Origin: a virus
Virus record (IMG/VR): IMGVR_UViG_3300043449_002450
Span: 32,001-96,000 of that record
Reading direction: 5' to 3' (one strand)
DNA: 64,000 nt
The notes beneath the pieces were generated by a model. That model had not been told where the DNA came from, did no database searches, and saw only the letters and a program-made list of their open reading frames with translations. Made by a program: the position numbers and the translations under genes. Of this stretch, positions 17,464 through 58,105 are shown piece by piece. The first letter of the stretch is position 1. Each line of letters begins with the position of its first letter.

Positions 17464-17934
17464 ATGGCCGAACGTAGCTTTAAAAGTGTCGGAGAACTTA
17501 ACACAGACGCGCGCGCTTCGCAGCCGCGCCAACCTGTGCCTATTGGAATTTTAACCCCTGTCAACTTTTCATCAAAGGTTGGTGGTCCATTTGAGATGTC
17601 AACTAATATTGTCAATCAAGTCCTAGACAATTTTAGGAACATGCTACTAACAAACCATGGCGAGCGCGTTCCTCTCTATGACTATGGATCAAATTTGAGA
17701 CAACTTCTAACAGAAAGGCTGTCTATTGACAACTACCAAGAGCAGGCCATGATGTTCATCAAGACATCAACAGAAAAATACATGCCGTATGTTAGCCTAG
17801 ACACTTTCGATTTGCAGCCATTGCAGACAGATGACCAGGGATTTTCTAAAGTTAGAGTTACAATTAAGTGCTCAATTCCTAAAATAACAACTGCAACCAA
17901 ACAAATTGAATTAATAATCACAAACATAGGATGA
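17464..17934 (+). CDS. Baseplate wedge subunit, gp25/GpW-like
   Basis: QVLDNFRNMLLTNHGERVPLYDYGSNL...KYMPYV signature. Confidence 0.88.
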   Translation: MAERSFKSVGELNTDARASQPRQPVPIGILTPVNFSSKVGGPFEMSTNIVNQVLDNFRNMLLTNHGERVPLYDYGSNLRQLLTERLSIDNYQEQAMMFIKTSTEKYMPYVSLDTFDLQPLQTDDQGFSKVRVTIKCSIPKITTATKQIELIITNIG

Positions 17935-55267: not shown

Positions 55268-57196
55268 ATGTCTAAGACATTCTCACTCAACCAGCTCACA
55301 GAGGGCATCAGCGATCGGAATGTGACCGATGAGGGCCGCAGGCTCCTCGAGAAGTGGAACCGCACTGGCCTTCTCCGCGGACTTGATGGCGTCAAGCGTG
55401 ACACCATGGCTCGCCTCCTCGAGAACCAGGCTTCGCAGCTTCTTCGGGAGTTCAACAGCCTCGGCTCAGGTGGTGGTAGCCAGGCTGCCGGTGGCGACAT
55501 CCGCGGCTTCACCAACATCGCCTTCCCCATCGTCCGCCGCGTCTTCGGTGGCCTCGTGGCCAACGAGCTCGTCTCGATCCAGCCCATGTCACTTCCAAGC
55601 GGACTCCTCTTCTACTTGGACTACACATACGGCTCTGACGTCGGTGGCGACGCCAACCTCGTGACCGGTAACTCCACCAGCGGCGCAACCTACAAGGCCG
55701 GCCAGTCGATCTACAACAACCCCACAGGCAAGGGCGTCCGCAGCGGATCTCTCGCCACGGGTGGTCAGTATGACCTCATCGGCACTGGCTTCACCAAGGT
55801 TCACACATCCTCACTCGTTGTGGGTGTCGCAGCCAAGGGCGCTTTCCACACAGCAGGCGGCGCAGCTTCTTCTGTTCTCGTTAGCAGCCAGCTGTGCTTT
55901 GCAACTGGCACAGACGGTCGCCTCCTCCAGTTCGACCCACAGGTCACAACTGCAATCGAGGACGATGCTGCCGATGGCGCCATCAACGGTTTCGGCCAGT
56001 TCCAGTTCCTCCTTCTCCCTGCATCCTCGTTCCCCCCGAACGTTGACTTCCAGCAGGTCAAGGAGATCGCTCTCCACTCAGCACAGGTTAGCTCGACTGC
56101 ACTCGGCCTCGCAGTTCCTGGTGAGTCGTTCCAGGGTGGAAGTGGAATCCTCAACATCCGTCGTCTCAACCAGTTCGGAACCTACGCGGGTGGCGTGTTC
56201 ACACCAAACCCACTTCTTCCATCCGGTTCATCTAACGCACACGTTCTGGTCGTTGTCTCTGGTTCATACCAGCCTAGCGCAGCTACCCCAGGACCTTACC
56301 TCACTGCATCGTATGCACTCACAGATGCACTCACAGTTGACAGCTCTGATGCCACGACTCTCACGATCCCCTCGTTCGAGTCTGACTTCAGCACGACACC
56401 CTCGGTTGTCATCCCTGAGATCGACATCAAGATCGAGAGCATCCCAGTCACTGCCACGACCCGCAAGCTCCGCGCTCGTTGGTCGCCAGAGTTGGCCCAG
56501 GACCTCAACGCCTATCACTCGATGGACGCTGAGGTGGAGCTCACCCAGATCCTCTCCGAGCAGATCGCTCTAGAGATCGACCGTGAGATCCTCAACGACC
56601 TCCTCACCGAGGCTCGAGGCGCCAACTACTACTGGTCCCGTGCACCTGGTCGATTCCTCAACAAGACGAACGGCGCCGAGATCGCTCGCTCCGACACCAC
56701 ATTCCCCGGTCCCCAGTTCACTGGCACCGTCCGTGAGTGGTACGAGACTCTCATCGAGACCGTCATTGACGTCGCCAACGAGATCCACCGCAAGACTCTC
56801 CGTGGTTCGGCCAACTTCATTGTGGTCAGCCCCGACGTCGCCACGGTCCTCGAGGCTTCGGTCATGTACAAGCCCAACTACAGCATCGACGGCCAGGGCC
56901 AGGTCGGTGGCTCCATGTCGATCGGTGCTTCACCCATCGGCACTCTGAGCAACCGCTTCACCGTCTACAAGGACCCCTACTTCCCCCGTAACAAGATCCT
57001 CGTCGGTTACAAGGGCGGCAGCTACCTCGAGACAGGCTATGTCTACGCTCCCTACGTTCCGCTCATCGTCACCCCGACGATCTTCGCTCCTGAGGACTTC
57101 ACCCCCAGGAAGGGCGTGATGACCCGTTACGGCAAGAAGATGGTTCGCGCCGACTTCTACGGAACGGTCACCTGCCTCGACATGAACATCATCTGA
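55268..57196 (+). CDS. Major capsid protein (T4 gp23-like) with enlarged insertion region
   Basis: ARLLENQ, FPIVRR, VSIQPMSLPSGLLFYLD, RKLRARWSPELAQDL..H..DAEVEL...EIDREI, VGYKG, YAPYVPL, FTPRKGVMTRY; strong C-ending codon bias; AGGAG SD. Confidence 0.97.
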   Translation: MSKTFSLNQLTEGISDRNVTDEGRRLLEKWNRTGLLRGLDGVKRDTMARLLENQASQLLREFNSLGSGGGSQAAGGDIRGFTNIAFPIVRRVFGGLVANELVSIQPMSLPSGLLFYLDYTYGSDVGGDANLVTGNSTSGATYKAGQSIYNNPTGKGVRSGSLATGGQYDLIGTGFTKVHTSSLVVGVAAKGAFHTAGGAASSVLVSSQLCFATGTDGRLLQFDPQVTTAIEDDAADGAINGFGQFQFLLLPASSFPPNVDFQQVKEIALHSAQVSSTALGLAVPGESFQGGSGILNIRRLNQFGTYAGGVFTPNPLLPSGSSNAHVLVVVSGSYQPSAATPGPYLTASYALTDALTVDSSDATTLTIPSFESDFSTTPSVVIPEIDIKIESIPVTATTRKLRARWSPELAQDLNAYHSMDAEVELTQILSEQIALEIDREILNDLLTEARGANYYWSRAPGRFLNKTNGAEIARSDTTFPGPQFTGTVREWYETLIETVIDVANEIHRKTLRGSANFIVVSPDVATVLEASVMYKPNYSIDGQGQVGGSMSIGASPIGTLSNRFTVYKDPYFPRNKILVGYKGGSYLETGYVYAPYVPLIVTPTIFAPEDFTPRKGVMTRYGKKMVRADFYGTVTCLDMNII

Positions 57197-57219
57197 TGTT
57201 CTAGCCGACAAGGCACATG

Positions 57220-57251
57220 GCGGCCACCCTTCGGGGTGGCCGCTCTTGTAT
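57220..57251 (+). terminator. Intrinsic terminator-like hairpin with C(UUCG)G tetraloop
   Basis: GCGGCCACCC-TTCG-GGGTGGCCGC perfect 10-bp stem (57220-57243) 23 nt after the capsid stop, followed by an imperfect U-tract TCTTGTAT. Confidence 0.85.
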
Positions 57252-57360
57252 CTGCACCAGCTTCTGTTGGACTTCGTCATGACTGATGGGTGTAATGTCA
57301 TCCCACTTTTTAATGTGATCTGATGAATCTGCAGTGTGTTCGGCCTATGTAATCCTAGGC

Positions 57361-57423
57361 CCAATCCAGTGATCACCTGACACCGACGGGGGATTGGAAG
57401 CATTCGGAGCATAGGAGGATCAC
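57361..57423 (+). ncRNA. Candidate cis-regulatory pseudoknotted 5' leader RNA
   Basis: CCAATCC/GGATTGG stem whose loop (GTGATC-A-CCT...CCGA) is complementary to TCGG...AGG-AG-GATCAC, covering the SD and abutting the ATG. Confidence 0.45.
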
Positions 57424-57894
57424 ATGCCAAAAACCGTAATTAGTGACGCGAAGGGCGTCGTCAACTCAGCAGGATCAGGAACAACCATCTCTAACGCTGT
57501 TACACTTAGCGGCGCGACAACTCTAAGCGGCGCGACAACTCTAAGCGGCGCGACAACTCTAAGCGGCGCTGTAACGCTAGGTGCTGCACTCGTAGGTAGT
57601 GTAGACACGCGTACTGACGCAGGCGCTGTGAGCCTTACATCTGTTGTAACGCTAGTTGTTACAACAACAGCCTCAGCACTTACACTTGCTGCAGGAACAG
57701 CAGGTCAAATTAAGATTTTGTCAATGACGACTGACGGTGGCGATGCAACACTTACGCCAGCGGGAGGCATCTTGAGCCCGTCCGCGGGCGCATTAACAAC
57801 AATCACATTTGATGCAGTGGGTGATGCTGTTACTTTGGTCTATACGGGCGCTAAGTGGGCCATAGTATCCAATTACGGTTGTGCATTAGCATAA
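57424..57894 (+). CDS. Small Ala/Gly/Thr-rich virion protein, putative head decoration/fibre
   Basis: AGGAGG SD; SGATTL repeats; C-terminal TLAAGTAGQIKIL...ITFDAVGDAVTLVYTGAKW beta-sandwich pattern; directly follows the capsid gene. Confidence 0.7.
   Translation: MPKTVISDAKGVVNSAGSGTTISNAVTLSGATTLSGATTLSGATTLSGAVTLGAALVGSVDTRTDAGAVSLTSVVTLVVTTTASALTLAAGTAGQIKILSMTTDGGDATLTPAGGILSPSAGALTTITFDAVGDAVTLVYTGAKWAIVSNYGCALA
57508..57569 (+). repeat. Perfect 18-bp tandem repeat (3.4 copies) encoding SGATTL
   Basis: AGCGGCGCGACAACTCTA at 57508, 57526 and 57544, plus a partial copy at 57562. Confidence 0.95.
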
Positions 57895-57912: not shown

Positions 57913-58062
57913 ATGAGCACACAGATTAAGGCAGATGAAAAAACTGCTCCCAAGAAAGATCTAGCTGTAGAGGCAGCCATCAAAAAGCTGGTTCAAACTC
58001 TCGTACAGAGAGGCGTTCTTAAGTCACATGAGGCAGAAGAAGTTCTCAAAGACTTCAAGTAA
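57913..58062 (+). CDS. 49-aa hypothetical protein (not in the ORF track)
   Basis: TAGGAG SD, then MSTQIKADEKTAPKKDLAVEAAIKKLVQTLVQRGVLKSHEAEEVLKDFK*, followed by a hairpin. Confidence 0.65.
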   Translation: MSTQIKADEKTAPKKDLAVEAAIKKLVQTLVQRGVLKSHEAEEVLKDFK

Positions 58063-58078
58063 AAAGACCAAACAGCAC

Positions 58079-58105
58079 TCAAGCGTCCTCAAAAGGGGCG
58101 CTTGA
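58079..58105 (+). terminator. Hairpin, possible terminator or processing site
   Basis: TCAAGCGTCCT...GGGGCGCTTGA stem with two G-U pairs; weak downstream U-tract. Confidence 0.5.

Follow-up and report, generated by a model that had tools for sequence, protein, structure and literature searches.

A covarying double-pseudoknot leader at the start codon of a putative virion protein gene in uncultured marine T4-like phages: a candidate translational control RNA

Known pseudoknotted leaders and the locus downstream of gp23

The mRNAs of the E. coli alpha operon (rpsM, S4; RF00140) and of rpsO (S15; RF00114) carry pseudoknotted 5′ leaders that include the start codon. Action by ribosome entrapment is established for the start-codon-containing pseudoknots of both operators; the S4 site is a complex double pseudoknot, and repression by S4 or S15 traps a docked 30S subunit (PMC3616713). 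The leader described here, from a 64-kb stretch of phage DNA (the window), likewise has its start codon within a pseudoknotted 5′ leader, and by analogy the S4 and S15 leaders are its closest match in mode of action. However, it shows no sequence or covariance-model similarity to them, the order of its strands differs, the gene that follows is that of a putative phage virion protein rather than a ribosomal protein, and the binding protein is known for theirs.

Three other groups of RNAs share single traits with the leader. HDV-like ribozymes share with it the nested double-pseudoknot order, a P1 of 7 bp and a short P3 whose 7-nt loop finds its partner downstream of P1. However, the leader has no P1-adjacent P1.1, no P4, no conserved catalytic C and no Rfam match of this kind, its junction is variable and bears the Shine–Dalgarno sequence, and a predicted promoter would start transcription 4 nt before P1. 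The SAM-II, SAM-V, preQ1-II and preQ1-III riboswitches have a comparable pseudoknot between a loop and the 3′ tail, whose 3′ strand overlaps the initiation region; in the leader, by contrast, the Shine–Dalgarno sequence is free and the AUG paired, two pseudoknot helices arise from one hairpin, the gene is non-metabolic, and no riboswitch model matches. The autoregulatory pseudoknot of T4 gene 32 also lies at the 5′ end of an mRNA leader in a T4-like phage and serves translational control, as is proposed here. The gene 32 pseudoknot is situated far 5′ of the ribosome-binding site and seeds the cooperative binding of gp32 along an unstructured stretch, whereas the present knot extends to the AUG, and the protein encoded behind it has a beta fold like that of gp9/gp10 and is not a gene 32 product. 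Finally, Mu-gpT-DE RNA (RF03012) shares its place after a phage major head gene and ends in a Shine–Dalgarno sequence and AUG; it was the only phage cis element in a weak list of Rfam hits, at a chance-level score (9.6 bits against a gathering threshold of 49, E 7.4).

An Rfam 15 search with a 1-kb region, the 106-nt element and 13 diverse members gave nothing credible, the models searched including SAM-II/V, preQ1-II/III, Alpha_RBS, the S15 leader, HDV, pistol and twister, in agreement with the original prediction, which could not match the leader to the SAM-II/V or preQ1 riboswitches or to the T4 gene 32 operator. At E ≤ 10, only chance-level overlaps were obtained (MIR7729, SNORA65 and Mu-gpT-DE), and none in the 13 diverse members. 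A non-exhaustive survey of the literature, which also covered Mu-gpT-DE and the mechanism of double-pseudoknot operators, found no description of the motif. The leader is classified as a new RNA family of the pseudoknotted translational operator kind with an unusual topology, and it is a good candidate for a new RNA that controls translation. The catalogue of structured regulatory RNAs in phages is poor, and only a few model phages offer a detailed picture of how late structural genes are controlled at translation; here, an orphan motif is tied to a diversifying family of small, putative virion proteins, and the double-pseudoknot topology of the HDV type is put to a seemingly non-catalytic use.

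The source is a 176-kb IMG/VR virus record (42.5% G+C) of a T4-like marine phage. The major capsid protein gene upstream of the leader (Table 1) is of the gp23 type, its closest named relatives by tblastn (Flavobacterium phage immuto, Microcystis phage Mel-JY01 and cyanophages) being only 34–48% identical. Downstream of gp23, a strong terminator hairpin at 57219–57244, which also appears in the MFE fold of a 264-nt region, is followed, after a gap of 227 nt from the end of gp23, by a 156-codon open reading frame, and equivalent hairpins precede the promoter-like motif in two related loci (L046 and L051). Next in order are a gp13-like neck or head-completion protein and a gp15-like protein; in T4, the gp23-to-gp13 interval, which is the position of the leader-bearing gene here, is occupied by wac. 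A 49-codon open reading frame with a good Shine–Dalgarno sequence (57913–58062) lies directly 3′ of this gene, and the hairpin behind it probably closes the transcription unit.

Table 1. Elements of the leader and of its surroundings, in window coordinates
Feature	Position	Strand	Basis or remark
gp23-type major capsid protein gene (642 aa), upstream neighbour	55268–57196	+	Pfam PF07068 Gp23, E 8.9e-78; tblastn to T4-like capsid genes
Intrinsic terminator 3′ of gp23: 11-bp G+C stem, TTCG loop, T-rich tail	57219–57254	+	terminator scan
Late-promoter-like motif (A/C)TAnnTA, here CTATGTA	57345–57351	+	fixed spacing, enrichment
Predicted transcript 5′ end A-R-G-C (AGGC), unpaired	57357–57360	+	invariant A
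P1, 5′ strand CCAAUCC	57361–57367	+	pairs with 57391–57397
5′ bulge AGUGAUCA; 57369–57374 is the PK-b 5′ strand	57368–57375	+	Watson–Crick-run test
P1b, 5′ strand CCUG	57376–57379	+	pairs with 57387–57390; covariation, RNAalifold
Apical loop ACACCGA; last 4 nt (57383–57386) are the PK-a 5′ strand	57380–57386	+	7-nt loop in 124/129 leaders
P1b, 3′ strand CGGG	57387–57390	+	covariation, RNAalifold
P1, 3′ strand GGAUUGG	57391–57397	+	covariation, RNAalifold
Unpaired linker AAGCAU, consensus A-A-K-C-W-U	57398–57403	+	6 nt in 129/129 leaders; five variants
PK-a, 3′ strand UCGG (57404–57407); possible extra pair G57409–C57381	57404–57409	+	100% paired
Unpaired linker J with Shine–Dalgarno AGGAGG (57413–57418)	57410–57417	+	variable length, AGGAG kept
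PK-b, 3′ strand GAUCAC, ends one base before AUG	57418–57423	+	Watson–Crick-run test
Gene proposed to be regulated, 156-aa protein	57424–57894	+	ORF list; N-terminal conservation; AF2, Foldseek
Terminator-like hairpin after the 49-codon ORF	58079–58105	+	terminator scan, ORF list

Relatives of the locus were collected by a gp23-based scan of IMG/VR, which yielded 80 loci with 62–82% capsid identity. By blastn, the 77 nt at 57356–57432 are 83–95% identical in a dozen of these 80 loci, an identity that exceeds that of the adjoining gp23 DNA, while the distance from the gp23 stop to the leader ranges from 68 to 2028 nt among the phages. Of the 45 gp23 relatives for which 2.3 kb or more of downstream sequence exist, about half (21) carry the leader. 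The set was enlarged by three IMG/VR pattern scans and a covariance model built from 32 sequences; a scan of metagenome contigs, TARA Oceans records included, added at least the matches listed. In total, at least 165 leader matches with at least 131 distinct variants were obtained from uncultured phages in IMG/VR and marine metagenome contigs, and these matches indicate that the leader is widespread in ocean metagenomes, TARA contigs included. The window's own genome has a single copy. A pattern scan of prokaryote genomes gave chance hits in G+C-rich genomes, and none of the 80 loci among the matches listed fits the model. Neither the 1.4-kb region nor the 77-nt element had a blastn match in 50,697 phage records, and the covariance model gave no hit near the gp23 genes of Flavobacterium phage immuto, Microcystis phage Mel-JY01 and LR756508, or at the Melnitz locus.

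Helices of the leader and their covariation

The original prediction described an H-type pseudoknot, in which CCAATCC (57361–57367) pairs with GGATTGG (57391–57397), and the loop pairs downstream through GTGATC (57369–57374) with GATCAC (57418–57423), CCT (57376–57378) with AGG (57413–57415) and CCGA (57383–57386) with TCGG (57404–57407). All of these segments are present in the window as described, as are an upstream GGCCTA/TAGGCC pair, the AGGAGG at 57413–57418, the ATG at 57424 and the CTATGTA at 57345–57351. In the window sequence alone, such pairings are weak evidence. The nested MFE of 57342–57440 does not stand out from shuffles (z = −0.14); a 7-bp stem with 6-bp and 4-bp loop-to-tail helices occurs in 25 of 20,000 dinucleotide shuffles (0.125%), and about nine other chance places on both strands of the 64-kb window pass the same three-helix test. 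It is the comparison with related phages that makes the pairings solid. Both conservation and covariation were found in the homologous leaders, and P1, CCGA/UCGG and GUGAUC/GAUCAC all covary, so that a conserved leader pseudoknot is real. Comparative analysis indicates that the leader, about 67 nt long, forms a rigid double pseudoknot of the nested type; its four covarying helices are referred to here as P1, P1b, PK-a and PK-b.

Among 76 distinct sequences, 98.1% of the cells of P1 are paired, and five of its seven pairs covary with up to five pair types. The corresponding values are 97.7% and three of four pairs for P1b (GC/CG/AU/UA; CG/GC; UA/UG/CG), and 100% and three of four pairs for PK-a, whose core 4-bp helix occurs in six versions (CCGA, CCGC, UCGC, CUGC, UUGC and UCCC) with matching partners. 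The covariation score of 0.399 compares with 0.06–0.09 when the partners are slid by 1–3 columns, and none of 500 shuffles reaches it. A MAFFT alignment of 32 sequences, which was not fitted to the model, gave the same picture, with 93.9% of cells paired versus 25–54% with slid partners, 13 pairs with double changes, and an observed covariation score reached by 0 of 500 shuffles. P1 and P1b were also independently predicted by RNAalifold. In P1 and P1b together, 82 G–U pairs were counted against 11 A–C pairs, showing that the constraint acts on the plus-strand RNA.

PK-b was analysed in an alignment-free manner because its register shifts between clades. The bulge and the stretch at −10 to +6 of the AUG share a longest Watson–Crick run of 5.9–6.0 bp on average, compared with 3.4–4.2 bp in shuffled or partner-swapped controls. 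PK-b is at least 5 bp long in 127 of 129 leaders, and about 24 helix-sequence/register combinations with about 20 distinct helix sequences were recorded; in the 32-sequence alignment, an AU/UA swap is split 15:15. Even a change of codon 2 from CCA to GUA is accompanied by a change in the bulge from GCAUAA to CCAUAA, by which the helix GCAUAA/UUAUGC becomes CCAUAA/UUAUGG. Of the 129 leaders, 100 have a 3′ strand that extends over the A of the AUG or beyond, 23 have one that stops at −1 (the type found in the window), and in 4 it stops further upstream. In 123 of the 129, PK-b thus reaches −1 or extends over the AUG, so that the start codon lies inside the pseudoknot and the Shine–Dalgarno sequence is unpaired. 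Simple duplex energies are modest, −3.5 to −4.6 kcal/mol for PK-a and −6.1 kcal/mol for PK-b.

The geometry is constant throughout the 129 leaders: P1 is 7 bp, P1b is 4 bp, the linker is 6 nt, and PK-a is formed by the last four loop nucleotides. Only the bulge (8–11 nt) and the Shine–Dalgarno linker from PK-a to the AUG (11–42 nt) vary.

P1b was absent from the original prediction and, on the covariation, is a new helix that replaces CCU/AGG. The latter was rejected as a conserved pairing because the strand changes to GCUG, GGUG, ACCG or GCCG elsewhere while the Shine–Dalgarno sequence stays AGGAG; these alternative 5′ strands covary with a local partner (CRGG, CAGC, CACC or CGGU), and the first position of CCU/AGG is unpaired in 8 of 32 sequences. 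The proposed occlusion of the initiation region therefore applies to the spacer and the start codon, which are paired, but not to the Shine–Dalgarno sequence, which was thought to be covered and instead sits in an unpaired linker of variable length. The observation of leader pairings is confirmed by the sequence comparison, and the interpretation given to them in the original prediction is partly supported. A further candidate helix, P0, in which the 5′ ARGC would pair with GCAU of the linker, was also rejected (69% paired, no covariation).

The clade of the window has GATC in both strands of PK-b (57418–57421 on the 3′ side), and the bulge sequence GTGATCAC (57369–57376) is a perfect palindrome. 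This palindrome is probably incidental, since the bulges of other clades (GTGAAC, GCATAA) are non-palindromic.

Predicted transcript start and the downstream gene family

In 72 of 75 leaders, an interval of exactly 5 nt separates the promoter-like motif from an invariant A (57357) on its 3′ side. Its positions −12, −11, −10, −7 and −6 are 80–97% conserved in these 75 leaders, in which the A is invariant and preceded by a pyrimidine, the G at the third position is conserved at 100% and the C at the fourth at 96%; among 129 leaders, the one exception to the start A is a G, in TGGGC. The geometry of motif and predicted start resembles that of T4 late promoters. Compared with the T4-type late promoter (a TATAAATA-like element at −13 to −6 and no −35 element), the motif is a relaxed (A/C)TAnnTA at −12 to −6. 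It is enriched 5′ of other plus-strand genes in the window (12 versus 4.7 expected, P 0.002), and terminators are frequently found just upstream of it. From these sequence features, (A/C)TAnnTA is probably the late promoter of this phage group, and the fixed spacing to the A suggests that the mRNA probably starts at A57357, 4 nt before P1. CTATGTA had been proposed as a late-type start just before P1, and a conserved element at fixed spacing is consistent with such a start. The competing pairings that had been suggested for a longer read-through RNA lie upstream of the predicted start, and would thus be missing from the transcript; moreover, they are not conserved as pairs.

Examples of (A/C)TAnnTA occur 10–35 nt before the window genes at 17464, 28432, 42688, 52410, 53841 and 58146, e.g., GATACGTA before 52410 and 53841, and GATAATTA before 42688.

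The proteins encoded downstream of the leader are 135–190 aa long and share a conserved N-terminus, MPK..(K/R)G(L/V)VQ..GSG (MPKVxYxxxKGLVQExGSG), the remainder being variable with a weak C-terminal pattern. PHROGs and Pfam searches found no family for the window's protein. Its AF2 model is all-beta (pLDDT 82), with the best Foldseek matches to the N-terminal part of CBA120 TSP4, a phage KP1 baseplate protein, a Pa223 capsid spike and T4 gp9/gp10; neighbouring clusters in the Atlas bear PF07880. The model suggests that the product is a small, exposed, gp9/gp10-like virion protein that is probably trimeric. The earlier naming of the product as a decoration protein is plausible but unproven.

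A perfect 18-bp tandem repeat of 3.4 copies, AGCGGCGCGACAACTCTA, at window positions 57508–57569 encodes repeated TLSGAT units and may be a place where the length of the exposed protein varies.

Some phages have tandem arrays of two or three genes of this KGLVQ family, each copy being preceded by a promoter-like motif and a double-pseudoknot leader of its own. Such tandem loci are L150 (2579–3213), L155, L180, L185, L353 and L383, the last two with three copies about 670–690 nt apart. Two loci on the reverse strand, L157 (3000–4577) and L184 (2248–3020), are arranged differently: the leader precedes a basic protein of 138–144 aa (MATSRGRKS...), followed by one to three leaderless KGLVQ-family genes. 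The presence of the leader on a different protein means that autoregulation via the conserved N-terminus cannot be general, and the basic protein is itself a candidate for an RNA-binding partner. In L014 (5082 and 5653) and L045 (6219), KGLVQ-family genes have the motif and a Shine–Dalgarno sequence without the structured leader; they are natural controls for the contribution of the leader.

Possible functions of the leader

The explanation that we regard as probable, with some reserve, is that the leader (57357–57423) acts in cis as an RNA gate on the translation of the gene at 57424. A late promoter at 57345–57351 would initiate the mRNA at A57357, and its first 67 nt would fold into a rigid nested double pseudoknot, in which P1 (7 bp) and P1b (4 bp) make up a hairpin. 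PK-a would form where the final four nucleotides of the apical loop pair with UCGG, six nucleotides past P1, and PK-b where the 8-nt 5′ bulge pairs with GAUCAC immediately 5′ of the AUG. The Shine–Dalgarno sequence would then be single-stranded between PK-a and PK-b, where a 30S subunit could dock, with the spacer and start codon locked in PK-b, so that initiation would need PK-b to open. A trans-acting factor would read the folded core and shift this balance, a role suggested by the fixed geometry together with the unpaired nucleotides that do not vary, and the output of the small virion protein would be tuned relative to that of the capsid. By analogy, the mode of action would be like the ribosome entrapment by S15 and S4. 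The effector, if one exists, is more likely a phage or host protein than a metabolite, and it would show by what means these phages keep the amount of an accessory virion protein in step with that of the capsid.

The own transcription unit of the gene, with a terminator upstream and a promoter-like motif at fixed spacing, supports the gating explanation, and so does the finding that every tandem gene copy has a motif and leader of its own. On the other side, the leaderless family members of L014 and L045 count against it, and a strong Shine–Dalgarno sequence, in a gene for a late structural protein, points to high output more than to repression. No alternative, mutually exclusive conserved fold was found for the leader, and it could simply set a fixed rate. 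More speculatively, the leader might be the sensing part of an RNA switch of a new class, responsive to a ligand or a protein and built on the HDV-type double-pseudoknot fold, which would gate hypervariable proteins of the virion surface in marine T4-like phages that are abundant and uncultured, or, less likely, a P4-less catalytic relative of HDV; we hold this broader reading to be possible but doubtful.

A metabolite or ion riboswitch, in which a ligand bound in a pocket of P1b, PK-a and the linker stabilises PK-b and thereby shuts off or tunes translation, appears unlikely. The compact, aptamer-like fold with its invariant helix and loop lengths, and the invariant unpaired A-R-G-C, A-A-K-C-W-U and first loop nucleotide, would suit such a role, as would an expression platform (the AUG in PK-b) that overlaps the fold in the manner of pseudoknot riboswitches. 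However, the gene is a putative late virion protein gene without a metabolic link, its context offers no ligand, and no Rfam riboswitch model matches.

Bacterial mRNAs can be stabilised by 5′-terminal stem-loops, and the ring-like pseudoknots of xrRNAs block exonucleases. The leader could accordingly be a 5′-terminal stabiliser of an abundantly expressed late mRNA against RNase E, which acts in a 5′-end-dependent manner, or against a 5′–3′ exonuclease such as RNase J, with any translational control being incidental. The predicted transcript start only 4 nt before P1 fits this proposal, as does a gene with a strong Shine–Dalgarno sequence, a predicted promoter of its own and terminators. However, stabilisation leaves unexplained why the partner of the bulge always follows the start codon through about 24 combinations of helix sequence and register, and why the unpaired linker nucleotides are invariant. 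As the main function it is improbable, and 5′-end stabilisation is likely a side benefit.

The order of the strands raises the question of a P4-less, HDV-like self-cleaving ribozyme, which would trim read-through capsid transcripts just 5′ of P1. The match comprises P1, P2 (PK-b), P3 (P1b) with a 7-nt L3, P1′, the L3 partner (PK-a), the junction and P2′, together with a 7-bp P1. However, the AA that follows P1 (128 of 129 leaders; GA in one) cannot form P1.1, and L3 has no U; PK-a is displaced by the 6-nt linker in all 129 leaders; the junction before the 3′ strand of P2 is 11–42 nt long and has no invariant C (U in L115, L140 and L074); and the first pair of P1 is C–G in 72 of 75 leaders, not G–U. 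No HDV-type Rfam model matches, and a predicted promoter at fixed spacing 4 nt upstream would make cleavage there pointless. On this comparison, a catalytic role is very unlikely.

The simple H-type pseudoknot, with an interrupted P2 (GUGAUC, CCU and CCGA) that sequesters the Shine–Dalgarno sequence, is hardly tenable as the conserved fold, given that CCU/AGG is unconserved and the local P1b covaries instead, even though CCU can pair with AGG in the clade of the window. In its nested MFE structure (−17.1 kcal/mol), the predicted transcript adopts just this extended hairpin and lacks P1, suggesting that an alternative conformer may exist in the window's clade.
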